From the NCBI GenBank assembly GCA_035221665.1, contig JAVHYY010000289.1:1-64000 (forward strand): a stretch of 64,000 bases of DNA, in the 5' to 3' direction. The first letter of the stretch is position 1, and every line of letters begins with the position of its first letter. Made by a program: the position numbers and the translations under genes. The DNA comes from Okamejei kenojei. Lineage: Eukaryota. A model generated the notes under the pieces. It ran no database searches. It was not told the DNA's origin and saw only the letters and a list, made by a program, of their open reading frames with translations. This document shows, in pieces, positions 6,984 to 37,586 of this stretch.

Positions 6984-7054
6984 GGTTGCTCGTTGGATTT
7001 CGGATCTTATAAATGGGTTGTAATAATAGAATGACAAATTCCATACGCAGCCAG

Positions 7055-8114: not shown

Positions 8115-8545
8115 CTGTAACATATTTAATATCTGTTATTTACATGATTCCTTCAGCCACAGTGTAGGACTTCCACTCTCCCAGCATCTGGGACAAGTGC
8201 CCCAGTTCCAGCCCTCCCCACAATGCTGGTGATATGCCGGTGATGTGTTGATATGGTGGGTCCCACAGTCAGATGCTGGTCAGAGCTGCGATTTGGGAGG
8301 CTGGGTTAGAACCCACGGCTTCCCCAGCAGTGTGGGCCACTCTGCAGTGATAAGGGTGGAGGTGGGTAAGGGGCGTACAGACCATCCGTGATCTCAGTGT
8401 GTGCTGGAGCAGACACAGGAACAGCATGGCCATCACCGTGTTCCAGTGAGCAGGAACAGATGAGACAACTGTTTTCTACTGGCAGGAGGTTTGGCAATCA
8501 CAACGTTAGGGTGTCGTCACCTCTACTTTGTTTGTAACTCGTTTT

Positions 8546-12911: not shown

Positions 12912-13212
12912 CTATTAATATTTCAGTCCAGAATTTTGTAATTTTTATACAGTTTGTAAATGAGTGTGACAAATTGGCTTCTAAATGTTGACATTTATCA
13001 CATATGGGGGATACTTTTGGAAACATATTATGTAATTTGGATTTTGAATAATATAGTCTATGTAGTATTTTAAACTGTGTAAGAGAGTGTTTAGCGTTTA
13101 GCGAACAATGATGTATATGTTGTAAACTATCATCCCATACTTCTGGTCTTAAAGTTTGGCATAATTCATTTTCCCAAGATTGTCTATGTATTTCTGTTGA
13201 TGGAACATCACC

Positions 13213-13443
13213 NNNNNNNNNNNNNNNNNNNNNNNNNNNNNNNNNNNNNNNNNNNNNNNNNNNNNNNNNNNNNNNNNNNNNNNNNNNNNNNNNNNNNNNN
13301 NNNNNNNNNNNNNNNNNNNNNNNNNNNNNNNNNNNNNNNNNNNNNNNNNNNNNNNNNNNNNNNNNNNNNNNNNNNNNNNNNNNNNNNNNNNNNNNNNNNN
13401 NNNNNNNNNNNNNNNNNNNNNNNNNNNNNNNNNNNNNNNNNNN
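13213..13443. other. Assembly gap (231 N)
   Basis: Run of N in the sequence. Confidence 1.
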
Positions 13444-13833
13444 GTATTCGAATGTTTATTTAAACATTCATCTAATATTTCTGTCTTTTTATTTCTGAGT
13501 TCTTGCGTATTTGCTTTAACATAATCTCTAATTTGTAAATATCTAAAGTAATCTTTAGAGTGTAGTCCATAAATTTGTTGTACATCTTGAAATGAAAGGA
13601 AGGAGTTTTCCCTATAGAGATCACCGATAATCTATTATTTATGAAATAATTCCATTATTTTTCCATTGTAAAAAAGCTTTATCCATTATTGAAGGTTTAA
13701 ACGTAACATTATTTACAATGCTAAGAGATAGTGGTATAGATTTTAGTTTTAATGTTTTCTTTATTTGTTTCCAAATACGTATTCCACTTCCTATTATTGG
13801 GTTTTCACTATACGTTTTCTTAGCTAGATTAAT

Positions 13834-13966
13834 AGAGGGTATGGAGAGAAGGCAGGTACGGGATACTGAGTTGGATGATCAGCCATGATCATATTGAATG
13901 GCGGTGCAGGCTCGAAGGGCTGAATGGCCTACTCCTGCACCTAATTTCTATGTTTCTATGTTTCTA
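13834..13966 (+). mobile_element. Short CR1 3' tail inserted in L1
   Basis: GAGGGTATGGAGAGAAGGCAGG...CTATGTTTCTATGTTTCTAT. Confidence 0.85.
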
Positions 13967-16900: not shown

Positions 16901-17682
16901 CCATCGCAACAACCTAGAGCTCAATGCTTTTAAGACAGTGGAATTGATTGTAGACTTTAGGAGAGCTTCCCCTCCCCTCACCATCAACAACACCACAGTC
17001 ACATCTGTGGAGTCTTTTAAGTTCCTGGAAGCCATCATCTCCAAGGACCTTAAGTGGGGGGCCACCATCAACTCCACAGTCAAAAAGGCACAGCAGAGGA
17101 TGTACTTCCTGCGGCAGCTGAGGAAGCACAATCTGCCACCGGCAATGATGGTCCAATTCTACACGGCCATCGTGGAGTCTGTTCTCACCTTCTCCATTGT
17201 GGTCTGGTTTGGCTCAGCCACCAAGCACGTGGCTGTTGCAAATCGTCGGATCAGCAGAGAAGGTTATTGGCTGCATCCTTCCGTCCATTGATGAACTGTA
17301 CACTGCAAGGGCCAGGAAGCGAGCGGGCAAGATCATCTCTGACCCCTCTCACCCTGGCCACAAACTCTTTGAATCACTTCCCTCTGGAAGGCGACTCCGG
17401 ACTGTCAAAGCTGTCACAGCCAGACATAAAAACAGTTTTTATCCATGAGTAGTTGCTCTACTCAACAGCCAAAAATCTGTAGCCTCCCTTTGATCTGGTA
17501 TTTTGTTGGTTCACATGCTTGATCAATGGTGTTTTATCATTAATGTTTAATTATTATTATTAATGTTTAGTGTTTTCGGAGTCATTTAGTAACTGTCACT
17601 GTGTGTCATGTTGTTACTTGTGGGCGGAGCACCAAGGCAAATTCCTTGTATGTGAATAGTTGGCCAATAAACTTACTTACTT

Positions 17683-17863
17683 CTATATCTCTATATCACC
17701 GTCTAAATCTCTCTTTTCCATTTCACCAACTCTCAGTCTGAAGAAGGGTCTCATCCAGAGACGTCACCAACTCCTTTTCACCAGAGATGCTGTCTGACCT
17801 GCTGAGTCACTCCAGCTGCCTATCTTCGCTTTAAACCAGCATCTGCAGTTCCTTCCTACACAA
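17683..17863 (+). mobile_element. Penelope-like element pseudo-LTR, 3' half (5' half at ~9320-9399)
   Basis: Collinear with the 26140-26556 and 63290-63462 copies. Degenerate hammerhead core at 17738-17765. Confidence 0.75.
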
Positions 17864-18334
17864 CTTTAAGTTCAATGGGAAAGGAGGTCAGATGGACGAG
17901 AAATTTACTTTGTTATATGACAGCAAGTGAGTGGAAGCAGATTTATGTCATTTTCACAAGGAGACTGGATTTCACTTGGTGAGGGGTCGGCTGCAGGGTT
18001 GAGGGAAAAGTGCAGGAAGAGTAAGGAAGGTTTAAATCTCCACACTGCGCATGGGCACTATAGGCGTGGCTCTGTGCACAGCAGCTGATCTGGAGGGAAT
18101 GTGTTTGGGTGGTAGAGAGCTGCAGGAATTAGACAAAGCAGTGGATAGAATGGAGGCAGATCAAGATGAGATGCTTCCTCCGTGAACCCCCCCCCCTCCC
18201 CCACCCACCCACCATTATTCCCTTCCACGTAAATTCTCACTGTCTTTTTCCTTGAGCAGCAGCACTCTGGCTGATAGGAGGAGAATAAATGAGCAAAATA
18301 ATTAATTCGCTTCCTCCTACATTGTTCGACTTAA

Positions 18335-18554
18335 GGGCCTGTCCCACGTCATAGGGTGCCGAAAATTTCCAACATGTTGAAAATTCAGCGGCGACCAGAA
18401 AGACGCTACGACTCTTTGGGTGACATGTCGCGGGGTGAAGCCTGTATGGTCATGAGTAATCGCCCAAAGAGTCGTACCTTGTTCTGGTCGCCGCTGGACT
18501 TTCAATGACGATTGCCGGCAGTTGTCAAAAAAGTCACGCAAGTGGGACAGGCCC
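18335..18554. mobile_element. PIF/Harbinger MITE with TAA TSD
   Basis: TAA-GGGCCTGTCCCAC ... GTGGGACAGGCCC-TAA: a perfect 13-bp TIR and 3-bp TAA duplication, ~60 bp past the CH1 donor. Confidence 0.85.
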
Positions 18555-18615
18555 TAAAGGCTTCCACTTCAGTTCTATTGTCAGCTTTAAATAGACAACA
18601 AAGTCTCATACTGAC

Positions 18616-18924
18616 CTTGAGGTGTCTGGATCTGTTTTATCACCATGCTGTCCGGCTTGTATCCTGCCTTGCAGTAGTAGATGTTTTTCCTATTCCAATC
18701 TTCCACAGGGACTCGCAGCAAGCTGCTCATTGTGTGCTTGTCGTTTTGTCCCAACACTGGTGGGTACTTTGTGAATCCAGTGGTGATGTCCCCAGTGCTG
18801 GTGGACCATGTCTGACTGATGATCGCAGGCTGGTAGTCCTTGACCAGACAGAGGACGCTGATCTCTTGGCCAGATTCTGTGTTGCAGGGAGAGGTGATGT
18901 GGACTGAAGGCAAGGTCTCAACCT
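18616..18924 (-). CDS. IgW: IgW CH1 exon
   Basis: 309-nt phase 1-1 exon (TTTCAG| ... G|GTCAGT), open frame: EVETLPSVHITSPCNTESGQEISVLCLVKDYQPAIISQTWST...KYPPVLGQNDKHTMSSLLRVPVEDWNRKNIYYCKAGYKP. C1-set Cys/Trp/Cys plus an extra N-terminal Cys typical for light-chain linkage. The YQP...SQTW...YCKAGY pattern is IgW-type from recollection. Confidence 0.92.
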
Positions 18925-19065
18925 CTGAAATGTAAATAAATTAACAGTTGGTTCTGTAGTAAATGGATTATTACCAGCGTGTGCAACAGGAAGGCGCTGC
19001 AGAGAGTAGTGCTTTCGGCCGAACGCACTATGGGAACTACGCTCACCCCCCTGTAGGACCTAGCT

Positions 19066-19226
19066 CAGCTCAACTCTGCCTGTCCCACCAGATCAACCTA
19101 CAGCCCTGCCTGGACTTGGGGGAAATATGGCCCAGGTTTACAACCTGCGCGGAGAAGCAGCGCTGGTGTCCCGTCAGTCCAGGCAGGGCTGTAGGTTAAC
19201 CTGGCGAGATAGGCAGAGTTGAGCTG
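19066..19226. repeat. Inverted repeat, ~51-bp arms with ~59-nt loop
   Basis: CAGCTCAACTCTGCCTGTCCCACCAGATCAACCTACAGCCCTGCCTGGACT pairs with AGTCCAGGCAGGGCTGTAGGTTAACCTGGCGAGATAGGCAGAGTTGAGCTG. Confidence 0.9.
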
Positions 19227-19797
19227 CATTTAGCGCTGGATTGAGCCTCCGAAGCCTCGCGTGTGTGCGTGTGAGACTGCGCATGCCAAGAAATTGTGTG
19301 TCCCTGTCCCCTCCATATTTAATAGCGATTTCCGTGCCTGTATGTGACAAATAAAGTTGACGACTTGACTTAACTGAGGTTCGTGCTGATTGTTGAGTAA
19401 ATGCAGGTGATTCAGGCTGAGAGACGGCCAGGCAGAGCAGAGAAATGGTTCCTTTCCCAATCCCTTTCACACTGTGCATGACCAAGCAGTGAAATGCTGA
19501 TCTCACACCGGCCACTGGGGAGGCAACTTCTGCCAACCAGAGGGACAAAGCGGCCTGTGCTGTGGGTGATGTGTCCCAGGTCAGGAAGCACATGGTACGG
19601 TGCCAGATGGACCATATCCACAACCACCGGGCCAAATGGTGCTGGATCTGGCCTGTTGTAGACCTTCCTCACGCTGGGCCCGGGGAGTGTTGTACAAGTA
19701 AGGGATCTTGGAGTACAGGTACACAGATCCCAGGAAGCGTTGTCACTGGTAAATAGGCTGGTAAAAAAAGCTCTTCATGAGTCAGGGAATTGATATA

Positions 19798-19855
19798 CAG
19801 TAACCCCTCGTTTTAACGGACCCCTTTATAACAGATTTTGGATATAGCGGATCGA
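19798..19855 (+). mobile_element. pogo/Tigger-like TIR end
   Basis: TA-CAGTAACCCCTCGTTTTAACG followed by sub-terminal reiterations. The other end was not found. Confidence 0.5.
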
Positions 19856-20420
19856 GCTGCCAATACCACCCTGCCACGCATGGCTCCTGACCGCTTAGAG
19901 CCCCGGCTTCCAACTCCACCCCCCCACTCGCAAGTGAGCCCTTCTTCACCCACTGTATGGTCCGTGATGCTGCTGTTGTTGCGGCTCACGGAGCCCCCGA
20001 GATGAACGCTTTCTTCAAGCTGCCGTCCTCGACAGGATGTGCGTGGTCACCATGAGGCTCCCTCCCCTCCCACCTGCTGCTGCTTCAACCTGTCAGTTCT
20101 TCACTTTGTTCCCTCCCTGCTCAACCACCATCTCCCCCTTGTCCTCCCCTCGCTCTGTCCACTCTGCCTCTTCCCCCTCCCCCTCCCCCTTCCAGCGCCA
20201 TCTCCTCCCCTCGCTCTGTCCACTCTGCCTCTTCCCCCTCCACCGCCATCTCCTCCTCCTTCTCCCTGGAGTCACCAACATACTGCACCTTGGAAGCAGC
20301 AGCTGGTGAGAGGAGAGGGTGCCCCATGGTGACCGTGCACCCTGTCAGTGGCAGCAGCCTGAAGAAAGCACTGCCAGCCAGAGGCTACAATGTGAGCCAC
20401 AACCACAGCCGGGTTTCAGA

Positions 20421-20815
20421 TTCCTTGGGCTTCATGATGCTGTCTGTTCACTAATGTACTCTAACAAACCTCTGAGGCCTTCACAGAACAGCTGTATTTA
20501 TACTGAGATTAGATTACACACAAGTGGGCTCTATTTACTAATTAGGTGACTTCTGAAGGCAATTGGTTGCACTGGATTTTATTTAGGGGTATCAGAGTAA
20601 AGGGGACTGAATACTTTTGCACGCCACACTGTTCAGTTTTTTTATTTGTAAAAAAATTTGAAAACCATGTATCATTTTCCTTCCACTTCTCAATTATGCG
20701 CCACTTTGTGTTGGTCTATCACATAAAATCCCAATAAAATACATTTACGTTTGTGGTTGTAACGTGACAAAATGTGGAAAAGTTCAAGGGGTATGAAAAC
20801 TTTTGCAAGCCACTG
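20421..20815 (-). mobile_element. Tc1 transposon 5' end
   Basis: Minus strand begins TA-CAGTGGCTTGCAAAAGTTTTCATACCCCTTGAACTTT. An inner direct repeat at ~20600-20632 gives the IR/DR structure. Truncated just after the putative transposase start ATGAAGCCCAAGGAA. Confidence 0.8.
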
Positions 20816-20949
20816 TAGGTGTAAGATGAATGTGTGGGGAACTTTTTAAAACACACAGGGTGGTGGGTATATGGAACAGGATGCCAGAGGATTGTTCCCC
20901 TTACTATATAGGAGCGATCCTTCTTTCCCTGATGAAACTGAACAATAAT

Positions 20950-23223
20950 ATACAAGAAGAATCCAATTACTCACAGTATAATACGAATTTGGAAACAAAT
21001 TAAATTAACTTTAAAATTAAGAAATTTATCGCTTCTTTCTCCAATAGCTAATAATCCCTCATTCAAACCATCTATTATTAACCATATAATATAACCATAT
21101 AACAATTACAGCACGGAAACAGGCCCTCTCGGCCCTTCCAGTCCGTGCAGACCATTTGTTTTCCCCTAGTCCCATCTATCTGCACTCAGACCATACCCCT
21201 CCATTCCCTTCACGTCCATATACCTATCCACTTTACTTTTAAATGTTAAAATCGATCCTGCTTCCACCACTTCTGCTGGAAGCTCATTCCACACAGCCAC
21301 CACCCTCTGAGTAAAGAAGTTCCCCCTCACGTTACCCCTAAACTTCTGTCCCTTAATTCTCATGTCATGCCCTCGTTTGAATCTTCCCTACCCTCAATGG
21401 GAAAAACGTATCCACGTCAACTCTGTCTATCCCTTTCATCATTTTAAAGACCTCAATCAAGTCCCTCCTTAACCTTCAGCGCTCCAAAGAATAAAGACCT
21501 AACTTGTTCAACCTTTCTCTGTAACAGAGTTGCTGGAACCCTGGCAACATTCTAGTAAATCTCCTCTGTACTCTCTATTTTGTTGACATCCTTCCTATAA
21601 TTAGGCGACCAAAATTGTACACCATACTCCAGAATTGGTCTTACCAATGCCTTGTACAATTTTAACATTACTTCCCTACTCCTATATTCAATGCTCTGAT
21701 TTATAAAGGCCAGCACACCAAAGGCTTTCTTTACCACGCTATCTACATGCGATTCCACCTTCAGGGAACTATGCACAGTTATTCCTAGATCCCTCTGTTC
21801 CACAGCATTCCTCAATTCCCTACCATTTACCATGTACGTCCTATTTTGATTTGTCCTGTCAAGATGTAGCACTTCACACTTAACAGCGTTAAACTCCATC
21901 TGCCATCTTTCAGCCCACTTTTCCAAATGGCCCAAATCTCTCTGCAGACTTTGAAAATCTACTTCATTATCCACAACACCACCTATAATACTTCATTATC
22001 CACAACACCACCTATAATACTTCATTATCCACAACACCACCTATTATTGATAAAACGTGTATCCATTGGGAAAGAATAGGAATTAAAATGATGGGAGATA
22101 TGTATGAAATGGGAAAACATTTATGAATCCAACAATTACAACTAAAATATAATTTGAAAAGTAATCGATATTTTAAATATCTTCAAATTCAAGATTATTT
22201 GAAAAAATATATACAGGGATATCAAACTCTAACCCAAGATTTATTAGAGGAAGGAATGAATAGAAAGGCAGAATCAAGCAATTTAATATCATACTTATAT
22301 AATATAATTCTAAATATAGAAACACCAACGACAGAGGCAATTAGAAGGGAACTGGGAACAAGAGTTATTGATTAAAATTCCGAACGGAAAATTTTTTTTT
22401 GTTATATGTACATAAATGTTCAATTAATGTAAGACATAACCTAATTCAATTTAAAAATTTACATAGATTATATTATTCGAAAACTAGACTGAATAAAATA
22501 TTTTCAAATGTTTCCCCCATCTGCGACAAATGTCTAACTCAAAATGCCACTATAGCACATTCCTTTGTCTCTTGTACAAAACCGCATAAATTTTGGAATG
22601 AAATTTTTGGAACTTTTACAAAACTATTTAACACAAAATTGAACCCCAATACAGAACTGATTATCTTTGGATCAATGAAAGAAGGAAGTAAACTAACTAT
22701 ATTCCAAGAAGCTCTTCTTAATTACGGTTTAATAACAGCAAAAGAACTTATCCTCAAATTCTGGAAAAACGCAACGACACCAAGGTTCAAAATATGGATT
22801 TTAAATATGTTGTAAACGCTACATCTTGAAGAAATGAGATTCCTCCTACTAGGCAAAGTAGACCAATTCTTAAAGACTTGGTCTCCTTTTATCAACTTTT
22901 TACAAGCATATGGTGCAACATAACATAACCTTAGAAATTAAATGGTTCAGAACCGGGTGATGGATGGGTAAATACGAAATAGGTAGATCTCTCCTAATTT
23001 CTCTTTTCTCTACTTTCTCTTTTTCTTTCAATCTTTTTAGCTTTTCATCTCTGCTCTTCATTTCTTTCGCTATCTGTTTCTACTCGCTTGTCTATCTATG
23101 CCGACACTCTTTATTTCTTTTTCCTTTCACTGTTCTTTTATTATTAAATTAAAAATTTATATATATATATATATATAATATATATATAGGAGAAAAATGT
23201 AAACTTAAAAAACAACAAAAAAA
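20950..23223 (+). mobile_element. L1-clade LINE 3' portion, interrupted by CR1
   Basis: ORFs 22154-22375 and 22399-22815 encode the L1 C-terminal Cys-rich region (QFKNLHRLYY...CDKC...H...C...FW). AT-rich 3' UTR and A-rich tail. Confidence 0.85.
21081..22045 (-). mobile_element. Young CR1 3' fragment with (TTATATGG)n tail and CTATTATT TSD
   Basis: Near-identical to 48220-49130. The flanking L1 sequence CTATTATT is duplicated at ~21072 and ~22041. Confidence 0.9.
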
Positions 23224-23299
23224 GTGGTATTAGCATGGTTGTCAGAAACTGTACTGAAATAGTTTGATGACAGAGCACTGAAGTGAAAGGGTGACTGCT

Positions 23300-23462
23300 C
23301 ATAGAAACATAGAAAATAGGTGCAGCAGCCCTAGTGAAATAGGTCCATTCAGCCCTCCGAGCCAGCACCGCCATTCATTGTGATCATGGCTGATCGTCCC
23401 CAATCAATAACCCGTGCCTGCCTTCTCCCGATATCCCTTGATTCCACTAGCCCCCAGAGCTC
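23300..23462 (-). mobile_element. CR1 3' tail fragment
   Basis: CATAGAAACATAGAAAATAGGTGCAG... conserved CR1 3' UTR. Confidence 0.8.
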
Positions 23463-23654
23463 TCCCCACAGATGCTGCCCGAGCTGCCGAGTGTTTCGTG
23501 CAGGAGGCTCAATAATGTCGGGCGGTGAGATTTGCAGCTCACAGTGTTTTCCATCCCGGGATCAGTAGGTGGTGAGTGCAGTTTAAATTGGATCAATGTT
23601 CCTAATGTGGTCAGGAGGTGGGCCAGGGACTGGAAAACACATCATACTGGCAGC

Positions 23655-23786
23655 AGCGTGCTGGGGTGAGGATCTGGGTCTAGCAGGGTGCTGGGATGAG
23701 GAGCAGGGTGCTGGGGTGGAGCAACAGGGTGCTGGGGTGAGGAGCTAGTGCTGGGGTGAGGAGCTGGATGCTGGGATGGGGAGGGG
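23655..23786 (+). repeat. G-rich minisatellite (~20-bp unit GTGCTGGGGTGAGGAGCAGG) in the J-C intron
   Basis: About six degenerate copies are visible. Confidence 0.85.
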
Positions 23787-24719
23787 CAATAAACTGCCCG
23801 TCTGGCTTGCCATTCTGGGGGCATTTAGTGCCAATCGCGTTGCTGGGTCAGGGGTCAGAAATCGGTTCGACTGGGTAAGGACAACAGATCTCCTCCGCTG
23901 AGGGACAGCAGGGAAACTGAGAGGCCATCATTACTGTGGATTAGTGCGCAAAACCCCGGTTACCAACAAAAGGAAATCTGACAGGTCCAGTCTGTCCCAG
24001 ATTACGAACAGAGTTTAAATCCCACAGTTGCGGAATTAAACTGGGGTCTGATTGCGGCCTGATGCCTGTCCATTGGATCACTGTATCTGTGGAGTCTCGG
24101 ACAACATTTCCCCCTCACCAGCGGTTTGTGATTCTGCTGTGTCCCTCCTTCACAACGCGGCTCTACTGTGAACATGCCTCACTGTCTGTGAAGGGCTCGG
24201 GGACACCATGAAAGGTGCTCTGTGAATGACCACTGACATTCACTGAGACACCCGCAGCCCTGGTTAATGGAGCAAAGCACTTGTTGGACAAACCCAGTCG
24301 GCTGGCGGAGGAGGGCAGGAAATTACAGCCGTTCCTCCATCTGTGAACTGGGAAAAAGCAGTTCTTTTGTGCAGCAAAACTCACGTCAAAAACACCAAGC
24401 AACTTGACTCAGAATCTAAACTACCAGCATCAGTGAATTCACAATGAGGATTAAAAGGTATTGACTCACTAAGGATCTCTGAATGTTGAAATTCAATACT
24501 AGACACAAAGAAAACCTGGTGTACTAAAACCCACATCTAGAACCATGTACAACATTCTCTCATTATGTTCAAATCATTCATTATTGTGAACCTTTGTTTT
24601 TGAACCAAACAGCATCAATTTGTTTTACAATCTAGAGAACGTTTTGTGTTTTGAAGCATTTACATAAGGAGTGTTTGACAGAGCAATCTAGAGGGAGCTT
24701 GACTGTGTCAAGCACTCTG

Positions 24720-25025
24720 TCCCTGCACTGGGAGTATGTAACAGTGTGGAGGGAACTTCACTCAGTGACTAACCCGTACCCTGGGTGTGTGGGGACAGTG
24801 TGGAGGGAACTTCACTCAGTGACTAACCCGTACCCTGGGTGTGTGGGGACAGTGTAGAGGGAACTTCACTGCTTGTTTAACCTGTGCTGCCCCTTCCCTG
24901 GGAGCATTGGGACAGGACAGAAGGAACTTTGTAACTAATCTGTAGCTGACAGTACAGTGACACAGGGAGATTTATTCTGCATTTGACTCGTGCTCTGTCT
25001 GCCCTGGATGTGTTTGATGGGATCT
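24720..25025 (+). repeat. Satellite-like tandem repeat, ~54-60-bp unit
   Basis: ACAGTGTGGAGGGAACTTCACTCAGTGACTAACCCGTACCCTGGGTGTGTGGGG occurs exactly at 24741 and 24795, with more degenerate units flanking. Confidence 0.85.
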
Positions 25026-25084
25026 CTTTGCGGGAGCAGGTACTGGAGTCATAGTTATAGATGAATACAGTGTGGAAACAGGCA

Positions 25085-26130
25085 GATTAATCTCCAAAAG
25101 ACTGGAGGGTGGCTGATACTGAAGTGTAATAGAAGAAGGACATTAGGGCCAAGCCAGGGATCTACACCAGTGAGCCTGATATCATTGGTGGGAATGTCCT
25201 TAGGGACAGGAACGACCAGTATTTGGATAGGCACGGACTGATTAGGGATAGTCTTAGGTTTACAAGATCTAGATCCCTTGGGAGGGTGGGCCAAGGATTA
25301 GGGACAGCATGGCTTGTGTTTGGGAAATTGTGCCTCATGAACCTGAGAGGGTTCAACAAGGTCTGGCATGGTGGGCTGGTGTGGAAGGTTAGATCACATG
25401 GAACCCAACATGAGCTAAATTAGCTTGGAGGAAGTGGACTGCTGCAGGGGTCAGTGCTGAGACCACTGTTGTTGGTTATCTACATTAACAGTTTGCCATA
25501 CAATATAGTGGACATTGATAGTAAGTTTGTAGATGACCCCAAAATCAGTGCATGAGTGGACAGTGAGAAGCATAAGTTTACAAGAAGAACTAGATCAGTT
25601 GGGAAGGGGTGCCAAGGAATGCCAAATGGAATTTAACTCTGACAAGTGAGGGGGTGTTGAACTTTGGTAGATCAAACCAGAGCTGGACTTACACAGTAAA
25701 TGGTAGAGCCTGGAGAGTGTTGTAGAACAGACAAATGGGGAAATACAGGGGCATGGTTCACTGAGAGTGGTGAGTTAGGTGGACAGGGAGCTGAGGTGGC
25801 TTTTGGCAGACTGCCTTCAAAGGGAAGGGAACTGAGTATAAATGAGGGGCATGTATAAGGTGCACGCTCACAGGCCTTTTCCCAAGATAGAGGTTTCTAA
25901 AACACGAGGGCACAGGCATAAGTTGCGCGGGGAGAGATTTAAAAGGGGACTTCAGGGGCATTTTTATTCTCATTGGGTAGGCAGTATCTGGAATGAGTTG
26001 CCAGAGGAAACTATAGAAGCAGATAGAAATTCCAATTACCAAACTCATCCATATGGATGAGAAGGATATGTGGCCAATGGGATGAGCCCAGAAAGCCAGC
26101 TTGGTCGGCATGCACAAGATGGACTGAAGG
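25085..26130 (+). mobile_element. Old, internally deleted CR1 fragment
   Basis: Degenerate RT motifs (SKFVDD-like, WQMEFNSDK-like) and CR1 C-terminus. Confidence 0.75.
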
Positions 26131-26139
26131 CAGGTGATG

Positions 26140-26556
26140 CCGAGACTCAGGGAAAGAACAGCACCTCATATTCCGCTTGGGGAGTCTGCATCCTCTGGGC
26201 TTGAATATTGAATGTTCTCAATTCTGTTAACCCTTGCTGTCTCCTCCCCTTCCCACCTCTCCCTCAGCCCTCGGGCCCTGGCATTCCCTCTATCTCTATC
26301 TCCCTCCCCCACCCCAGTCGCACCAGCTTCTCATTTTCACACCACAAACAGCTTACAATGGCTTGTTCCCTTTATCACCGATACTTTTTTGCATATCTTT
26401 CACTCATTGTTCCTTATCTCTCCACATCACCGTCTATATCTCTCGTTTCCCTGATCCCTGACCAGTCTGAAGAAGGGTCTCGACCCGAAACGTCGCCTAT
26501 CTCCTTCGCTCCTTAGATGCTGCTGCACCCGCTGAGTTTCTCCAGCTTTTTGTGTA
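26140..26556 (+). mobile_element. Penelope-like element remnant (end of GIY-YIG endonuclease plus pseudo-LTR)
   Basis: Encodes EQHLIFRLGSLH..GLNIE, followed by a pyrimidine-rich pseudo-LTR containing a hammerhead core. Confidence 0.8.
26461..26500 (+). ncRNA. Minimal type I hammerhead ribozyme motif
   Basis: CTGAAGA-A-GGGTC(TC)GACCC-GAAA-C-GTC at 26467-26494. It has an intact CUGANGA/GAAA core, helix II, a palindromic minimal helix III (ACGT) and a GUC cleavage triplet. Helix I is weak. Confidence 0.7.
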
Positions 26557-26760
26557 ACCCTCAGGGACAGAACAGCCTGTGGGGTGGTGGGAAATGTACT
26601 GTTGCTGGGTAGATTCTAACTCTGGAGAAACCCGCCTGTCTCCGGGATATCCGTGCAATTGTTCCAAATATCTCACAGAGTTCAGAATTACAGAATTCGC
26701 GCAGACCATAAATTAACAAAACACAACTTGGTAAAGATGGAATTGAGGAATTGGTCTTAC

Positions 26761-27108
26761 CTGCAGTCACTGTCAGCGAGGTTCCTGCACCCCAGTTGTA
26801 AAGCTGGCTGCACGCACAACAGTAATAGGTGGCCGTGTCGCCCAGTCTCAGGCCGTTCATTTGGAGATAGACGTCCCCGCTCACCCTGGAAACCTCGAAT
26901 CGGCCGCTGTAGGCAGGCGCGTATTTTTTGTCACCATCATACTTTATCCTCGCCACCCACTCCAGCCCTTTCCCCGAGACCTGTTTCACCCAGTGGAAGT
27001 TGCAGTTACTGTGGTTGAAGCCGCTGGTTGCACAGGTCAGTTTGACGGACCCTCCGGGCTTTGCCACCGCGGTCGGGGTCTGGTCCATCCCGGTCGCGGA
27101 TCGAACGC
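26761..27108 (-). CDS. IgW: Germline-joined VDJ exon of IgW heavy chain (in frame)
   Basis: Translates to GVRS-ATGMDQTPTAVAKPGGSVKLTCATSGFNHSNCNFHWVKQVSGKGLEWVARIKYDGDKKYAPAYSGRFEVSRVSGDVYLQMNGLRLGDTATYYC-CACSQLYN-WGAGTSLTVTA. It has the V-set Cys/Trp/YYC, the GLEW motif and the J motif WGxG-T-L-TV. Acceptor TTGGCAG and donor G|GTAAG are present, and there is no RSS between V and J. Confidence 0.95.
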
Positions 27109-27215
27109 CTGCCAATAAAAGAGAAAAAAAAAAGTTTAATTAACTGTTGAAGAGGCAGAGGGTCAAAGAGTGTCCGAGAAGCAGCCCGGCCCCGAGTGGG
27201 GACGACGACACCCAC

Positions 27216-27261
27216 CTGGCAGACAGACCAGAAGGAGACAGACATAAGCAGCGACCCCCAT
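27216..27261 (-). CDS. IgW: IgW heavy-chain leader (signal peptide) exon
   Basis: Minus strand ATG GGG GTC GCT...CTG CCA G|GTGGG reads MGVAAYVCLLLVCLP(G). It is 46 nt with a phase-1 GT donor, the classic VH leader size, followed by a 107-nt intron ending in a poly-pyrimidine tract and CAG. Confidence 0.93.
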
Positions 27262-27349
27262 CACTCTGATCACTGACACACACTTGGACACTCCAGGAAT
27301 GGGCGGCTTCAGCTCAGGCGGGCTTTGTCGAGAGCCGCGGTCAGCGCTG

Positions 27350-27357
27350 TTTAAATA
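27350..27357 (-). promoter_or_regulatory. TATA-like box (TATTTAAA) of the VH promoter
   Basis: TATTTAAA lies ~90 nt upstream of the leader ATG in GC-rich context. A CACCC box (~27417) and an ETS-like CAGGAAG (~27442-27449, minus) lie just upstream. No octamer is seen nearby. Confidence 0.6.
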
Positions 27358-27926
27358 GGGAAGTGAGCTGTGAGTGAGAGGGAGAGAGAGAGAGGGAGCT
27401 GCGGCTTGAACAGGTTCCCACCCACTGAAACCAGAGGCGCGGCTTCCTGGCCCTGCCCCCAGCACCCAGTTCAATTCCCCAAAAGATGCTTGTCTCCACA
27501 ACAGGCGGCGGGAGGAGGGACAATGATGAGATCCGGATTAAAGATTGATCCCACTCTGCTCCATCCACTCATTGCAATGCTGAACACTTTGTGGAGCAAG
27601 AGGACACTCAGATACCCCAGTGAGGGGCTGAGTTAAAAGTCGGTGTACAGATATCCCCCTGAGACAGAGGGACACCTGTCAATGTAGATATCCCCTTGGG
27701 AGAGTGGGGCTAAGGTTCACCGGTCAGTGTACAGCTATCCCCCTGAGAGAGAGGGACAGAGAGACACAAGTTAGTGCAGATATCCACATCAATGAGAGGA
27801 CTGAGAGACACTGGTCAGTTTGAGTTGAGATTGAATTGAGTTTATTGTCACATGTACCGAGGTACAGTGAAAAGCTTTAGTTGCGAGTTAACCAGACAAC
27901 AGACATACAATACATGATTATAATCC

Positions 27927-29288
27927 ACTATCGACCTGTGGCACTAACGCCTGTGGTGATGAAGTGCTTCGAGAGGTTGATCAGGCACAAATCAACTCCT
28001 ACCTCGACAAAAACCTGGACCCACTGCAGTTCGCTTACCGCCACAACAGATCGACAGTGGATGTGATCTCGCTGGCCCTCCACTCCGCTCTGGACCACTT
28101 GGAAAACAAAAACTCATATGTCAGGCTGTTATTCATCGATTACAGCTCGGCATTTAATACTATCATCCCCTCCAAGCTGGATACTAAACTCGCAGAACTG
28201 GGTCTCTGCGCATCCCTCTGCAAATGGATCCTCGACTTCCTCATCCACAGACCACAGTCTGTTCGTATTGGGGGAAATGTGTCAGACTTGATAACAATCA
28301 GCACTGGGGAGCTCCTCAAGGCTGCGTGCTCAGCCCCCTGCTGTACTCACTCTATACTCATGACTGCGTAGCCGGTTATAGTGCGAACTCCATCATCAAG
28401 TTCGCTGACGACACCACTGTAGTGGGACGTATCACTGATGGGGATGAGTCGGAGTACAGAAGAGAGATCGAGCAACTGTCCATATGGTGCCAGCACAATA
28501 ACCTGGCCCTCAACACCAGCAAAACCAAGGAACTGATTGTGGACTTTGGAAGGAGTAGGATGGGGACCCACAGTCCCGTTTATATCAACGGGTCGATGGT
28601 TGAAAGGGTCAAGAGCTTCAAATTCCTGGGCGTGCACATCTGTGAAGATCTTTCCTGGTCCGAGAACACTGATGCAATTATCAAGAAAGCTCATCAGCGC
28701 CTCTACTTCCTGAGAAGATTACGGAGAGTCGGTTTGTCAAGGAGGACTCTCTCTAACTTCTACAGGTGCACAGTAGAGAGCTTGCTGACCGGTTGCATCG
28801 TGGTTTGGTTCGGCAACTTGAGCGCCTTGGAGAGGAAAAGACTACAAAAAGTAGTAAACACTGCCCAGTCCATCATCGGCTCTAACCTTCCTTCCATCGA
28901 GGGGATTTATCGCAGTCGCTGCCTCAAAAAGGCTGGCAGCATCATCAAGGACCCACACCATCCTGGCCACACACTCATCTCCCCGCTACCTCCAGGTAGA
29001 AGGTACGGGAGCCTGAAGACTGCAACGAGCAGGTTCAGGAATAGCTACTTCCCCACAGCCATCAGGCTATTAAACCTGGCTCGGACAAAACTCTGAACAT
29101 TAATAACCCATTATCTGTTATTTGCACTTTATCAGTTTATTTATTCATGTGTGTATATATTTATTAATGGTATATGGACACACTGATCTGTTTTGTAGTC
29201 AATGCCTACTATGTTTTGTGCTGAAGCAAAGCAAGAATGTCATTGTCCTATCAGCGACACATGACAATAAACTCACTTGGACTTGAAC
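27927..29288 (+). mobile_element. Rex/Babar LINE 3' half (RT domain)
   Basis: ORFs 27964-28371 and 28224-29096 (LFIDYSSAFNTI; GAPQGCVLSP; KFADDTT) with single frameshifts. TAATC flanks both sides. Located ~670 bp upstream of the IgW ATG. Confidence 0.92.
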
Positions 29289-29439
29289 TAATCGAGCCAT
29301 CCACAGTGAACAGATACATGATGAAGGGAATAACGCGAATAAAGTTCAGTGCAAGATAAAACCAGTAAATTCCGATCAAATATAGTTCAAGGGTCTCCAA
29401 TGAGGTAGATAGAGCACACAAGTCAAGCTACAACAGCCA

Positions 29440-30260
29440 GTCATGATGCTATGAGTGAAGTCCATCTACGCCTATATCGGCGACAATCTACACAATCTAT
29501 GACCATACCAGCGCCATGTTATGATAATACCGGCGACAACCTACGACAGCTGGCGACCATCGGCGACAGTTGACGCGACTAGCTACACCAGGCTACGACA
29601 GTGTCTCCTTTTTCTCCAGAAGAGGGCCCAACCCATGTCTTCAGCTCCTGAAACAGCTCAGGGGGGAGCCTGGTGAAGTTTCTGAAGGCAGCCTCATCTT
29701 CTTGTTGGAGCTCAGTCATCAGGTTGTCATACTGGCCCAACCTGGGTCTCTACAGGGACAAGGGCTTCAACCACACACACCTCTTCTTGGGCTTCCACTT
29801 CCCCATCCTTCTTGTCCTTCTGTCTTGCTGATCTTTAAGCTCGAGGGCTGCTGCAAGCAGCAGGGCTTCTTCTTGTGAGAGCAATGCCCTCAGATGTTGG
29901 AAACAAAACATCCCCTTTTATAACTGGGTGATTCCATTGTTTTGACATGAATTGTCTTCAGTTGTCTCTGACAGTCGTAACTAGTCGTGGCCTGTCGCGG
30001 GCGGACGTAGGTTGACTTCGGTTGTCGCCTGTGTGGTCGTAGATTGTCGTATGTGTCGGCGTAGGTTGTCGTAGGTGGACGTCCCAAGTCGCGACGATTG
30101 TGTCACCGGTTGTCGGTAGCTTGCCTCAGCTTGACGTCGACTAGGTGGTAGGTTGTTGTAGCTTGTCGGAGACATTGTTGTAGGGGGTCCAGTCGCCGGT
30201 TTTTCAGCGACCTGCTACGACTATGACAGTCGCAGGCAGTCGCCTAAGTGGGACAGGCCC
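29440..30260 (-). mobile_element. Internally deleted PIF/Harbinger transposon with transposase N-terminal remnant
   Basis: TIR AAGTGGGACAGGCCC-TTA at 30246-30260. Minus strand 29602-29890 reads KKRCVWLKPLSL*RPRLGQYDNLMTELQQEDEAAFRNFTRLPPELFQELKTWVGP/LLEKKET. Confidence 0.75.
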
Positions 30261-31552
30261 TTAAATGGCTTGATTGTAATCATGCATTGTCCTTCTGCTG
30301 ACAGATTAACACACAACAAAAGCTTTTCACTGTGCCTCGGTACACATGAGAATAAACTCAACTGAGCTGAACTGAAGTCAATGATGCAGTTGCAGAGGTG
30401 AGTACGGACTCCAAGTCCCTCGAGTTTGGTGATGAGCTTGGCTGGTATAATGGTGTCAGACTGTAGATATCCCACGAAAGAGTGTACAGATATACCCCTG
30501 ACAGTGGCACACTGGTCAGTGTAGATGTCCCAAGAGAGAGGGAATGAGGGAGACCGATCTGTTTACAGAAGGGAGAGAGGGAGAGAGGGGGAGAGGGAGA
30601 GAGAGGGGGAGAGGGAGAGAGAGGGAGAGAGGGAGCATGCGCTAGCTGTCAGTATACACATATCGAGAGAGAGAGGGTGAGGGAGAGAGAGCGCTACCTG
30701 TCAGTGTACAAATATCCCAAGAGAGTGGGACTGAGAGACACTGGTAAGTGTGCAGATATCCCCATGAGAGAGAGGGATTGGGAGAAACTGGTCAGTGTAG
30801 AGCAGAAAGATAAGAATAGGTGCAGGAGTAGGCCATTGCAGAGGTTTCCACAGATTCACAACTCAGTGTACAGATATCAAGCTGAGAGAGAGGGAGTAAG
30901 GTTCACCGGTCAGTATACAGATAACCCTCTGAGAGAGAGAGAGAGAGAGACTGAAAGCTGCATAGAAACTGTGAGCAGTGTAAAGTTAGCCCCCTGAGAG
31001 AGAGTGACTGAGCGAACCCATGCAGTGAGGGAAAGGGACTGAATTGATAAAGCTAATTTGCAGAATCTTCTGCCTCCACCAACCTTGGAAGAATCAATGT
31101 GAACCAGAATTTCTTGGGTGGAAGGAGGATTATATACTGATCAGGAATTTTCTCTCCCAGAGATTAAAATAGAGTTTCAGTACTGGGCAGGTGTGCCATC
31201 ACTACTATTAGAAACCCCTTGATCTGTGTCAGCCGTGGGTCTTTTGATCCAAGTTTTCAAGAACAGGAAGTGCAACACTAAGAGAAGCATATGTACTGAG
31301 AAACAGGAGGCTGCCCAGTCAAGGGGGCAGCCAAGTGCTGCTGGACGGGTCAATGGCAGGAAATCCCAGGGAGAGACGTTCTGTGGAGCATCTGTTCCTT
31401 CTTCAGAATGGTCTCACGACAGTTCCAAATCATGCACCTCCAACAGACATAGAGCAACAAACGCTGCTCAATCCAACTCCCATGGCAGCTGAACAGATGT
31501 CCTGTTTCCCTTTCAACCTCACTTTTACCATTGCCATTTGTCCTTTTACAGG

Positions 31553-31703
31553 AACATAGAAACATAGAAAATAGGTGCAGGAGTAGGCCATTCGGCCCTT
31601 TGAGCCTGCACCGCCATTCAATATGATCATGGCTGATCATCCAACTCAGTATCCTGTACCTGCCTTCTCTCCATACCCCCTGATCCCTTTAGCCACAAGG
31701 GCC
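31553..31703 (-). mobile_element. CR1 3' tail fragment
   Basis: Conserved CR1 3' UTR and (CTATGTTT)n tail. Confidence 0.85.
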
Positions 31704-31875
31704 AAACTTGGGACATTTAATGGAGGCGTCTTGAGGGCAGTGAGTATTATGGACTTGGAGGTGCTCGATGTCCTCAGGCGTATGACAGTAGATAAGACCT
31801 ATGAAGATTGTACAAAACATTGATGTCTGGAATGCATTACAAGGGGACGTTGTGGAAGCAGATACGATAGCAATG

Positions 31876-34800
31876 ATTTTACTTCACAGAGGTTTTTCTG
31901 CCAGTTTCACAGCCCGACGAGTGAGCCGGTTATGGACTGTGGGGAAACCCCGGTCCCACAGCGGAAGCGGATAACTGGCAAAAAGATCGGGTTGTGAGAT
32001 AAGGAGCCGTTGACAAGGCAGTCAGAGGCTCCCAGCCTGCGGGGATGCCTTAGAATGGCAAGGAAATAACACCAGAGTCGCTGACAGTGTGGTCAGCGGC
32101 TCACAGATGTCGGTCCCCAGGCAGGGAATAAAATTGGGGAGAAAGGACTCGTTCAGCCCTATTTGGACTCGGGTGAGTCGGGCTACAAGGGTTTGTCTCT
32201 TATAAATAAAGTTTAATGTATGTTATAGTGTTTTCTTAAAGTTAAAAGTTAAAGGCAAAGTTAAAAGTCATAAAAGTTATTGTCATATGTCCCTGACAAT
32301 GAAATTCTTCTTGTTTAGCACAAGTTGCTGTGAAGGGTTAAAAATTGCTTTAACCCTTCACAGGTAATTCTGTACGCTAAAAATTTGGATTTAGTGAGCC
32401 TACACAGTAATAGTGCGGGCCTATGGGACAGGCCACGCTAGCAGCGCCTGACAGGGCTGCTTCATGTATGAAAGTGCTGGCCTACGGGAGAGCCGCACCA
32501 GCAACGCCTGATACAGGGCTGTTTCATTTGTAACATTGCCGGCCTACGGGAGAGCCGCACCAGCAACGCCTGATACAGGGCTGTTTCATTTGTAACATTG
32601 CCGGCCTACGGGAGAGCCGCACCAGCAACGCCTGGGACAGGGCAGCTCAAGTTCACACATAAGTCTGCTAGGCCCACGGAGTCGGAGGATGATTCCCCAC
32701 TGGGCTGGATAGCAAGGCCCATGGAGTCGGGGGATGATTCCTCACTAGGGCTGGATAGTGCGTTTGAAACGACTATCCCAAATGCAGCAACTGTTGCATA
32801 CAGTGCTACAGTTGGGCACAAGCCAACAGGAGTGTCAGCGCCACCCTGAACTAAAAGGCGCCAGCAGCATCTAGTAGAGAACTGTTTGATAGCACCTTCA
32901 TAGATGAGGAGGCACGGGCCATGGGCCAGTTTAGTTCTGACCCCGACTCTGATGGTAAGGTTGAGCCGGAAATTCTACCTCTGCAGGCCGCACCAGCAGC
33001 TCCAGTTGACAGAGCTGCTACAGGTCTCCCTCTTGGAGGCAGAGGCCAAGACAGGCCAGTATCCTGCTGACGCTGAGTCTCAGGGTCTGGCCGTGGGGCA
33101 TACCCCAAGGGATGAAGGGCACATGACAGAGGTACCTTTTTTCCTGACAACAAAGTTGCCATCTCAGCAGAATGTTCTATTCAGGTATAGGTCCAATGGG
33201 TTCATATCAGTATAGGTATCCTGCGGTAGTGCATGGTTAGGGCTGCCTACGAATCGCCCTCTCTGAGGAGAGAAGAGCAAAAGGTCAAGATAGAACTGAT
33301 TCCAGGCTCTAAAAAAGTCAATAGAACATACTGAAGCACATATGTGCCGGAAGTGAACAGCGCCAACAGGGGGATGTGAGAGCCAGCCGCCGAATCTGTT
33401 ATTCAGGTAGGCCTATTCAACAGGGGAAGAAAACCTGGCAGACAAATCAATTAAGGCCAACAGCGGCCAAAGGTCATCGTTTCAGAACGCACCCCAGGCG
33501 CTCATCGGCAGTCGGTGGTTCACTGGATCTGGGGGCAGCATGATAGCACAGAAATTCCATGCACCTTACCAACCCTACTCAACAAAGTGGGTCTAGCACT
33601 TCCAAAACATGGGTAAGTGCACCATTCACAAGTAGTAATATTTACATTTGTTTATGCAACACACAAAGGATAAAAACATCTGGTTGAGGTACAGTATTAG
33701 CATTCCAAGCAAGTTTGGATTATGGCCAGGGTTATCTTTGAAGTTATGGTTCGGAAATCGGGCCAAAGTTCTCATGCAAACCACCCATGGAATAAGGCGG
33801 AGTGGCATGTTTATTATGAAAAATGGAGAGTGTCGGGCATATGAACTTTCCGAATATGAAAACTTATTTTCCTGACTAACAACAGATTCATAAGGGTCTC
33901 AAAGATCCATGCTTTGCAATTCCCATTACAGAGGTTATCAAAGACAATATAACTGTACTAATAACAGTAAAACATTGCGGAATGGGATAAACTGTTCGTT
34001 GGTCATTGGGATTTACCTTTAATTATTAATTAGCCTATGATTCCGCCCTGTGGGAAGAGATTGGAGTTAATAGCAACCTGTTATAAACTGACTTTTATTT
34101 CTTCAAGAGTAATTGGCAATATAGTAGCGGTATTTCAGCTGAGCAAATCAAGGAACTGATATTGTGCAAAGTAGCGACCTCTCAAAGGACATGTAGACCA
34201 TTGTTAACAACCTTATGCTACTGTCAGCTGAAGCTACCTCAGTCACAATGATGAAAAAACAGCATTCAGCATTGCTGAACATGACAATAAACTTATTTGA
34301 ACCTGAACTTGAACTTGCTTCAGTAGTTTGGTCGGTCGAATTCAGTTATTACAAACTGATGCAAAGGACTCTAAGGTGAGAAGTTCCGAATACCATCTCT
34401 AGTTGGAGGTAGTGGAGATTTTCATGAGTTACCAATTCTTCAATTGTTGGTATCAACTAAATATATACACTAGATGCACCCCATGGGTAAGGGGCTATTG
34501 AGCGAATATACATATTCTACATGCTCAATTTCAAGTTGCTGCTCTATGATGGTGACATATGTTAGTCACATGGCAATCAAGTAAAAGTATCCTGTAATAA
34601 TTACCTTGTCTCCTTTGCCACTGGTGTATCATCCAGTTCAGATTAGGTATTGGATATCAAAGTATTATGAAAGTATGGTTCAATGCTACATCGAATATCG
34701 ACATGTTGGTTCATGTTCATTCATTCACTGATTGCAAAAATATGTGGCACAACAGTGCGGAGAAAAACATTCTCGCTACAAAAGGAGGAATGTTCTTTTG

Positions 34801-36399
34801 TCTTCCTCCATTTTTTGCCTCATTAGCCGGGTCTTAAAACAGTCAGCAACACCTCGCTTGGGTTTGTACTGTCAGACAGGCTAAGCAGCCATGTTGCCTG
34901 CTGCATCAGGCATAATAATACAACGTTATACGGTTATTCCAAAAAACAAAAACTTGCTGGTTCAAACTGTGGTTCAGGGGACCGGCCTTTGCATAATAAA
35001 ACAATTATTGACTTACACATTTTGAATGGATTGACTTATGGCTCAGGTTGTCACATAAAGCCATGAATGTGCTCACTGCAGAGTGCAGGGATAGCACCCA
35101 CAAAAGCAGTATATTCCTATAGAGGGGATCGAAAATGATTTCTTTAAATGTTAATGTTACAGTTAATATGGTACAGATTACTGACATCTTCCAGTTCATT
35201 CTTAAATGGTATTTGACAATAATTCAGTTATAGAGACACTACAGCTGCAACAAACGGGAACTACTCTGTTGGGTTCAATCCCGAATATCGAGTTGTTAAA
35301 GAGATCTTGACACAAGTTCTCCCACTACAAGAATATGCAGTTGGTTATTGAAAATGTGTTAACATGACTTCACCAAGGGGTTCCAGCTACATCCTTAGTT
35401 ATGACACTAACATCAGCACAATGACAGCAAACATTGCAAACGCTGTGGTGATCTAGGATGGAATTGGCTGCAGGTGTCATTACATTTTACATTCTGGTCT
35501 ACACAAGCAGAGCAGGCCAGGGGTGACAGGATTTAAGATCATTTTTCGGATACCCCACGGTCTCACGTCTGTGTGGGAGGGCAGGCTTGCTATATTATAT
35601 CAAGGCCACCAGAATCCTAAGTGTGGAATCTGCATTGTTTATTAATCAACAAACAACTACACAAAGGAAGGTCGGATCAGACTATTTCAAGGTGGCTGCA
35701 GCAGGTTCTGGGTTATGCAGGTATTAACACTGACGATTGTATATCTCATTCCACCAGGTCAGCATCAACGTCAGCGGCCAGAGCAATGGACATGCCCTTC
35801 GACCATATCCTCGGGACCACAGGATGGTGAACTGAATTGATTTTTAATTTTTTACCATAGGCTGGTTACTGACCCGGGGTTTTGCCCATTCTGTTTTGCG
35901 TCCACTTTAGCCTCCCATGAGTTACAGGGGTTGCTATTGATTTCTTTATTAATGTAAACCATTAATACATTTGAATCAATGTAATGCTTAATGCATTTTT
36001 GATTATTCACTCATCCTGAGTCAATCGATGCAGTGAGACGCCTTGATTTGGATCTGCGGCATGAAATCACAAAGCTTCGAACTCTATTGAAGTAAAATAG
36101 TAAGATTAAATGAGAACTTACCAGTTTGAAGTTTGATCTTGATTTTACGAGGAGTTACATTGGTGATTACGTGCCCTCCACGCCCAACCCTCTCTCATAA
36201 AGATCATCTGGTAGTTCTCGAGTCACGCATCTTACTATGTCACTTCGGTAATTGTTATTTGTGATTTCATACCGCTGCTTCGAAGATTGACAAACATGTG
36301 GCCTGGACGGGCTTCGTCACGTAATCACCAACGTACGTAACTCCTCATAAAATCAAAATCAAACTTCAAACTGGTAAGTTCTCGTTTAATCTTACTATT
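31876..36399 (+). mobile_element. Degenerate DIRS1-like tyrosine-recombinase retrotransposon
   Basis: YR C-terminus QTISRWL...AGI...SHSTRSASTSAA...GW (35621-35830) and a methyltransferase-like PPF..LISRVLK remnant at ~34800. The ICR at 36082-36173 is complementary to both the left end (ATTTTACTTCA) and the right end (36318-36399). Confidence 0.85.
32415..32642 (+). repeat. 62-bp tandem repeat (~3.5 copies) inside the DIRS element
   Basis: TGCCGGCCTACGGGAGAGCCGCACCAGCAACGCCTG starts at 32537 and again at 32599, with degenerate upstream copies. Confidence 0.9.
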
Positions 36400-36524
36400 A
36401 AAAGGCATTTAGACATATACACAGGCAATACTAATTTATGGAAGACATTGATAGATTAGACATTCAGTATTTTCTTTCTCCCAGGGTATGAATGTTTTGG
36501 TTCCACTTGTATTCCAAAGTATGC

Positions 36525-37095
36525 TTTGCCGTTGAGCCTCACATCAGTGGTAGGGAAGCAATTGGAGAGGATTCTTTGGGATAGGATTCACTACCATTTG
36601 GAAAGCAATGGGCTATTTAGGAACCATCAGCATGGTTTTGTATGCCGCAGATCATGTCTTACTAACTTGAATGATTTTTTTGAGGAGGTGATAAAGGTGA
36701 TCGATGAAGGTAGGGCAGTGGATGTTGTCTATATGGACCTTAGTAAGGCATTTGTGAAAGGTCTCCATGGTTGGTTGGCCCAAGAAGGTCACAATGCACG
36801 GCATTCATAGTGATTTTGTCGTCTGCTTCAATACAGGCTTACTGTTAGAAGATAGAGGGTTGTGGTGAAGGGCATTATTCAGACTGGAAGTCTGTGACCA
36901 GCTGAATTCTGCAGGGATCTGCGGACAGTGAGCAAGGATGTTAAAGTATAGATATGCGAGTAGGATGCTATGAGGCTGCAGGATGACTTGGATAGGTTGG
37001 GTGAGTGGGCAGATGCACTCTAAAGTATAGTGGGTATAGATCAGTTCAGAAATTGGCAGAGAAATGGAAAATGAGGTTTAATCCGACCAAATGCT
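36525..37095 (+). mobile_element. CR1 RT fragment
   Basis: SLTSVVGK...QHGF...SCLTNL...VDVVYMDLSKAF. Confidence 0.85.
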
Positions 37096-37586
37096 GAGTT
37101 GTTTTTCTAAAAATGACCGACGTTTTCCACACTTGCATGAAGCACATCTCTTCATCATCCTCTGTCTTCAGAGTCAATCCTATTGGTCGGTTATCTTTTC
37201 AGTAACGTAAGAATTGTTTATAGGTGTTGGTCCTTAAGTCAGGAACATATTTCCATATGTCAAGCAGCCTGCTTGTTCTTTTTAGCAAGTCTGTTCCCTG
37301 TGGGAGCCCCCCCTGTTCAGATTAAGACAATCTGCCATCTCCTACAGGAAATCAGAGGTGAAGGAAATAGTCCCCACATCACTGTCCAGTTTCACACACC
37401 CGTCGACAGTCAAAATATGAAACGTGTTTCTGGTAAATCAACAGCTGCACGCAGAGATTGTGTTCAAATTTGTCCCATGCATAGAGGATCAGCAGCAGGT
37501 TCTTCAACCCTCCAGCCCATCCCCACTCTCTGCTGATCTGTGTTTGAACTCCATTTATCCACCTTGGTTCTCTGTCCTTTAATCAC

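Follow-up and report, generated by a model that had tools for sequence, protein, structure and literature searches.

The 64,000-nucleotide stretch of Okamejei kenojei DNA analysed here (the window) carries an IgW heavy-chain cluster in which V and J are fused within a single open exon. We consider it probable (roughly 0.8) that this is an inherited fused cluster, likely derived from one old RAG-type join in a germ cell, and that the family to which it belongs likely specifies an IgW of fixed sequence that needs no rearrangement in B cells. The germline, inherited status of the join is supported by diverged genomic copies, by two DNA samples, by RNA and by the DNA of another organism (organism B).

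Layout and isotype of the fused cluster

The cluster is read from the minus strand of the window. A TATA-like box, TATTTAAA, lies at 27350..27357 (-), ~90 nt 5' of the ATG; the same motif is found in the promoter of one unjoined IgW cluster, and RNA contig starts fall near it, at 27344 and 27359. The leader exon (MGVAAYVCLLLVCLP-G) occupies 27216..27261 (-), with its ATG at 27261 and a donor GT at 27215, and is followed by a leader intron of 107 nt (27109..27215, -; GT..AG) that is precisely spliced out in RNA contigs of a related version. The V-junction-J exon (26761..27108, -) is open over 348 nt and matches the Pfam V-set domain with an E value of 4e-13. It consists of an IgW VH segment running from FR1 to Cys93 (26819..27108, -), a coding junction of 22 nt that is in frame and has neither RSS nor recognisable D (26797..26818, -), and a JH remainder, WGAGTSLTVTA (26761..26796, -), which abuts a donor GT at 26760; the alignment of an RNA contig ends exactly at 26761. 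A J-CH1 intron of ~7.8 kb (18925..26760, -) leads to an open IgW CH1 exon (18616..18924, -; C1-set E 8.5e-13), and the exon boundaries from leader to V-J to CH1 are all of the GT..AG type.

When the whole window was scanned for RSS with up to three mismatches, two weak hits were returned (24504 and 17603) and none at the end of V or the start of J. Both hits were rejected as V or J signals, since they lie in introns a long way from such segments. In each of four unjoined clusters elsewhere in the genome, a comparable scan locates 5-6 RSS within 1.5 kb of V. The scan and the 348-nt exon bear out what an earlier note, made from the sequence of this DNA alone, had described as a V, a short junction and a J forming one open exon that lacks heptamer and nonamer. 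That note had called the exon a pre-joined VDJ, and here the V-J join stands and no D part is recognisable: the 22-nt junction shares 3-4 nt with the D1 and D2 segments of the unjoined clusters, which is not above chance (shuffle P 0.99 and 0.59). The V and the J can be read directly in the exon, and it is from the layout of the unjoined clusters that we infer a D, and with it the designation VDJ. The end of V and the start of J differ from the unjoined segments in the manner that trimming and addition would give, and later mutation blurs the junction.

The constant region has to be considered together with that of a second copy on the same contig. A colinear repeat at 1..39710 (+) matches the other end of the contig (G000:C376:196033-235510), where the V of this second copy (the 222-kb copy) lies at 222205-222552, 195 kb from the window copy, and further C and TM exons reach ~164,500. 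The ends of the contig repeat with a 196-kb period, which might reflect a tandem array or else two haplotypes placed one after the other. The 222-kb copy has an open CH1, an open CH2 (with one 3-nt deletion), an open Cys-rich tail, matches to CH3-CH6 and a TM exon. As assembled in the window, the IgW CH2 exon (7777..8127, -; ends approximate) contains several 1-base insertions and the Cys-rich secretory tail exon of the short IgW form (7058..7190, -; ends approximate) is frameshifted, both being open in the 222-kb copy, and the 5' part of the IgW CH3 (1..243, -) is full of indels and truncated where the contig begins. Over the first 6 kb the two copies differ by 55-66 indels per kb, a rate that falls to 0.5-4 per kb at 10-18 kb and climbs once more toward the far end; because indels concentrate at the contig ends, the frameshifts in CH2, tail and CH3 of the window copy are probably read errors.

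The assignment to IgW, a class also named IgX, IgR or IgNARC, which had been made earlier from the sequence, is confirmed by the identity of CH1, the Cys-rich tail and the nearest relatives. The CH1 of the window copy is 76-80% identical to P0004, P0005 and P0006, the skate IgW-type proteins that made up the compared set, and the nearest database relatives are skate and ray proteins, among them IgX/IgW heavy chains from Raja eglanteria and Leucoraja erinacea. In the 222-kb copy, additional C domains are 83-94% identical to skate IgW-type models. A Cys-rich secretory tail after CH2, together with a long form that has more C domains, is given as a feature of IgW in the consulted part of PMC5192425 (section 3.2). 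Such a short tail follows CH2 here (open in the 222-kb copy and frameshifted in the window), and the 222-kb copy has a long form of at least six C domains, which the contig end truncates in the window. Protein searches and a cluster look-up yielded IgW relatives from skates, rays and sawfish, and the junction occurred in none of those aligned, an absence that carries little weight.

When V residues are numbered from the mature N-terminus of the V alignment, the V of the window copy has the canonical Cys22, Trp36 and Cys93 and an additional Cys32 in CDR1. The CDR3 reads CACSQLYN in the window copy and GACNQLYN in the 222-kb copy, with an additional Cys96. Both genomic copies have Cys32 as well as the CDR3 Cys96, and Cys32 is found in none of the 18 other IgW V regions aligned. 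To judge from the sequence, Cys32 and Cys96 might form an extra CDR1-CDR3 disulfide that would fix the short loop. An AlphaFold2 prediction from a 20-row alignment gave V a mean pLDDT of 93.4 and the all-beta strand pattern of a V domain; a prediction from the single sequence was poor (pLDDT 58), and a PDB search with V returned generic VH/VHH hits only.

Unjoined relatives and the DNA-level join

A search of the assembly with the leader region yielded six IgW matches, three of them unjoined and three joined. The joined ones are the window copy, the 222-kb copy and a decayed copy on C10 (L088, G000:C10:5049039-5049600), the last being an independent joined IgW V-J whose junction is different and very short and whose V has several deletions. 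Two of the unjoined clusters, both on C10, are laid out as V-RSS23, RSS12-D1-RSS22, D2-RSS12 and RSS23-J across ~1.1 kb, and the third unjoined IgW cluster is riddled with indels. This ~1.1 kb of RSS-flanked DNA, which is characteristic of the unjoined V-D1-D2-J clusters, is missing from the joined copy.

To a distance of ~17 kb, the 5' flank of the window V matches its counterparts in unjoined clusters at 79-93%, and the join therefore occurred in chromosomal DNA. A retrocopy is excluded by the retained introns, the promoter and the ~17 kb of flank. The proposal of a join at the DNA level accordingly stands, with promoter, leader intron, J-C intron, splice sites and flanks all kept. About half of the J-C intron aligns to the 5.8-kb intron of the unjoined clusters and ~4 kb of it is without a match; since only these ~4 kb are unmatched, the invasion by repeats is not peculiar to the window cluster. 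A heavy invasion of the introns by transposable elements had been noted earlier. The window as a whole is repeat-rich, and its long open frames at 47485-49044 (+), 14227-14982 (-) and 28188-29096 (+) resemble, by motif, what we take to be remnants of LINE reverse transcriptases.

Several other observations were made on Ig sequences of the same genome. As assembled, all three unjoined IgW V exons (L004/L012, L005/L011 and L089, at G000:C10:3.00, 3.05 and 3.43 Mb) are frameshifted, by 1-base losses in a G-rich CDR2 in two of them and by many indels in the third, and these might be either real pseudogenes or polishing errors. Among the contigs of DNA run X5, the unjoined-type leader is present at ~4x the depth of the joined V. 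Joined exons of a different VH family, which we presume to be probably IgM, are found at L003 (G000:C2:163.80 Mb) and L007 (C24:44.63 Mb), where they are open, in frame and have distinct CDR3s, and at L008 (C2:156.43 Mb), where FR3 runs directly into WGGG and the second Cys is absent; L006 and L010 are unjoined, RSS-bearing members of this family. Arrays of distant V-type Ig domains, with 23-35% identity to the query, lie at G000:C8:21.7-23.1 Mb, at C25:29.5-30.6 Mb, on C988 and on C1046.

Splicing, divergence and inheritance

Evidence for splicing of the joined family comes from two runs of one study, X8 (sample S5) and X9 (sample S6), whose RNA nature is a guess that is backed by their spliced contigs. 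One 529-nt contig of X8 skips the leader intron at GT..AG, spans the whole V-J exon with 17 differences and no gap, leaves the window exon at the donor of J and runs on into IgW CH1; X9 has a matching spliced leader-V contig. Differing from the window copy at 17/347 nt, the X8 version is a third joined version. It has the outgroup letter at 17/17 polarisable V sites at which the genomic copies differ, and at three further sites it differs from both. Its leader and the start of its CH1 are of the unjoined-cluster type, and its J has more than 31 nt in common with unjoined J segments. This version may be a genuine copy that the assembly lacks, or an allele, or it may be partly a graph chimera. 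In the two RNA-type runs no RNA contig was seen that matches the window copy or the 222-kb copy. A close version of the joined IgW gene is spliced in RNA, and hence the family likely provides a fixed, ready-made antibody. The earlier idea of an expressed, invariant and RAG-independent IgW, with its junction spliced to CH1 in RNA, consequently finds support at the level of the family, through a third version spliced from leader through V-J to CH1 (and maybe chimeric at leader and CH1), and is not borne out for the window copy, for which the two RNA-type runs gave no contig.

Intactness in spite of the transposable elements had also been read as a sign of selection, and this is not borne out when synonymous and non-synonymous changes are compared between the two genomic copies. 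The V-J exons give a pN of 0.070 and a pS of 0.068 (pN/pS ~1), and the CH1 exons differ by nine non-synonymous and no synonymous changes, eight of the nine being derived in the window copy (the chance of 8N:0S in CH1 under neutrality is 0.15); an excess of synonymous change is nowhere apparent. These figures, as well as the outgroup letters of the X8 version, favor the view that the join is a germline one but that the window copy is a duplicate undergoing drift, or else a recent pseudogene, with the X8 version or the 222-kb copy as the functional member. Several of the derived CH1 replacements of the window copy fall at positions that are otherwise common to skate IgW, its CH2, tail and CH3 are frameshifted as assembled, and the decayed joined IgW on C10 shows that joined clusters do decay. 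However, the leader, V-J exon and CH1 of the window copy are open, no stop or indel is present in the three versions, WGxG, Cys22, Trp36 and Cys93 are kept, the splice sites and the TATA-like box are intact, the fold is predicted with confidence, and the frameshifts are confined to the high-error end of the contig. We would place the chances of such a drifting duplicate somewhat below one half, and we give about even odds to the window copy being functional; from the common ancestor it has diverged more than the spliced X8 version has.

The two copies on the contig could also be alleles of one polymorphic locus laid in tandem, with the RNA version as a third allele. In keeping with this, the contig ends repeat over 39.7 kb with error rising toward both ends, long stretches are 99.7% identical, and the contigs of DNA runs X1 and X5 show only the window version over V (at flat depth, although contigs can drop variants). 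On the other hand, divergence over the V exon and the adjoining part of the intron reaches 7% (38/541), which is high for alleles, the J-C introns of the two copies differ in length by ~570 nt, and tandem Ig clusters 47 kb apart do exist on C10. We regard the allelic interpretation as possible while leaning against it; it touches copy number only and is compatible with an inherited join.

Differences between the copies pile up at the V exon, with 38/541 in the V exon plus the first 200 nt of the J-C intron vs 24/4883 upstream (Fisher P 3e-23). Patches of 2-7% divergence occur at 26584-27093, 18000-19000, 22500-24500 and 32500-33000, amid sequence of 99.7% identity. An AID-type hypermutation operating in the germ line might explain the pile-up at V, and private changes do radiate from a common core and there are three adjacent substitution pairs (P 0.05); but the changes show no bias toward hotspots (2/13 of the changes at G/C vs 51/272 sites, and 7/18 of those at A/T vs 110/253), and the other divergent patches, around CH1, at 22.5-24.5 kb and at 32.5-33 kb, are such as patchy gene conversion would give. 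Germ-line hypermutation was rejected for the want of hotspot bias and is an improbable source of the pile-up, of which patchy gene conversion is the simplest reading.

The inherited nature of the join can be followed beyond the assembly. The exact junction pattern occurs at two places in the assembly (a reversed control gave 0), and the junctions of the window and 222-kb copies differ at 2/22 nt. Reads were compared by way of assembled contigs for 7 of 24 listed runs. DNA runs X1 (sample S1) and X5 (S2) each yielded a contig that spans the junction and the greater part of V and has 0 differences, at depths of 57.4 and 48.7; they have the same organism label and separate sample and study codes, tissue and individual are not on record, and X1 is possibly the source sample of the assembly itself. 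The earlier note had claimed a germline join as opposed to a read from a somatic B cell, and had looked to DNA reads across the junction for proof; the presence of the junction in two diverged genomic copies and in the S1 and S2 contigs upholds the claim. In DNA run X7, from organism B, a gap-free contig covers 26737-27044, from the J intron to FR1, with 33 differences in 308 nt and a depth of 21.8, and depth arithmetic indicates that unjoined-type letters are absent from it at 26882, 26883, 26998, 27003 and 27008, sites that include the CDR1 Cys codon. Judged by its equal length and these five sites, the contig fits an ortholog of the joined exon, which falls short of proof, and the join would then predate the split from organism B. 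A second bridging contig of X7 (26742-26995) has three 1-base insertions in the junction, which lengthen it by 3 nt, and lacks one base near 26952. Runs X6 and X10, which together with X7 are the three compared runs that have another organism label or none, gave RSS-flanked V and J ends only and no bridging contig, which does not prove absence of the join. An origin of the junction by somatic rearrangement in a B cell or by mis-assembly of the reference, as the unrecorded tissue and an unplaced contig with error-prone ends might allow, is largely refuted and hardly credible in view of the same junction in two diverged copies, S1 and S2 DNA at depths of 49-57 with 0 differences, and an equal-length join in the RNA of another study and the DNA of another organism.

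Origin of the join and comparison with known systems

Germline-joined IgH and IgL clusters are described as standard for cartilaginous fish in the portions consulted of PMC2193153, PMC4279169, PMC5192425, PMC3308330, PMC2435157, PMC6795676 and PMC12227049, and portions of four papers (PMC2193153, PMC2193156, PMC3308330, PMC4279169) attribute the joins to RAG acting in germ cells. By analogy with this published work on sharks, the inherited IgW join most likely began when, in a germ cell, RAG cut a V-D1-D2-J IgW cluster of the usual kind, whereupon the cut ends would have been trimmed, V and J joined in frame, and the joined cluster duplicated or diversified. A cell of the B lineage could then transcribe and splice the joined cluster without rearrangement, as far as splicing is seen for the X8 version, and the product would be a fixed IgW heavy chain, perhaps an early-life one like the nurse shark IgM1gj. 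Germline joining itself is known, so that the phenomenon is textbook material for cartilaginous fish and the surprise is moderate; a joined IgW may be unreported. No report of one was found in the literature that was searched, a body that lies apart from the primary papers on skate IgX and shark IgW.

Open IgW V exons were found in two of the six leader matches in the assembly, and both are the joined ones. Since the sole two open V exons are joined, IgW in this species may, in an idea which we offer as speculation and think rather unlikely, be turning innate-like, with one fixed ligand. On this idea, skates would keep an ancient IgW that is invariant across species, with a single join and a CDR1-CDR3 disulfide lock, as their main or earliest IgW. 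If true, an innate-like IgW with one fixed ligand would offer a first handle on the role of IgW, whose function is termed unknown or poorly understood in the consulted parts of reviews. A single fixed, inherited and spliced sequence lends itself to expression and ligand screening in a way that a diverse repertoire does not, and it would extend to IgW the idea, put forward in the consulted part of Lee et al. 2000 (PMC2193156), that joins made in germ cells can become RAG-independent receptors.

Among the known systems, the skate IgX/IgW chains of Raja eglanteria and Leucoraja erinacea (P0004 and P0005) have a nearly identical leader, a V that is 64-67% and a CH1 that is 76-78% identical, and they share with the joined family the Cys-rich short secretory tail and a long form that has additional C domains. 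They differ in having longer junctions and a CDR1 without Cys, whereas the joined family has a fixed junction of 8 residues and a Cys in both CDR1 and CDR3. Extra CDR1-CDR3 disulfides are carried by IgNAR type II and by camelid VHH, which are like the joined IgW V in having a non-canonical Cys in each of these loops. Unlike them, the joined IgW V retains GKGLEW, an FR2 motif of the VH type, and has a CH1, so that pairing with a light chain is probable.

The joined IgH clusters of horned shark and little skate (VD-J, VD-DJ and VDJ) resemble the present one as fused V(D)J-C miniclusters that lie beside unjoined sisters. In the parts of the sources consulted, these joined clusters are described as IgM, as L chains or without an isotype, whereas the window cluster has an IgW C region. 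Expression of the joined H genes of horned shark was undetected according to the consulted part of PMC2193156 (section 23), in contrast to the joined IgW family, one version of which is spliced in RNA. Another parallel is the nurse shark IgM1gj, which is described in the consulted sources as a fully joined and expressed heavy chain with a pre-set binding site. It is an IgM that lacks one C domain, is dominant in neonates and has a joined sigma-2 L chain as its partner, whereas the heavy chain of the window is an IgW.
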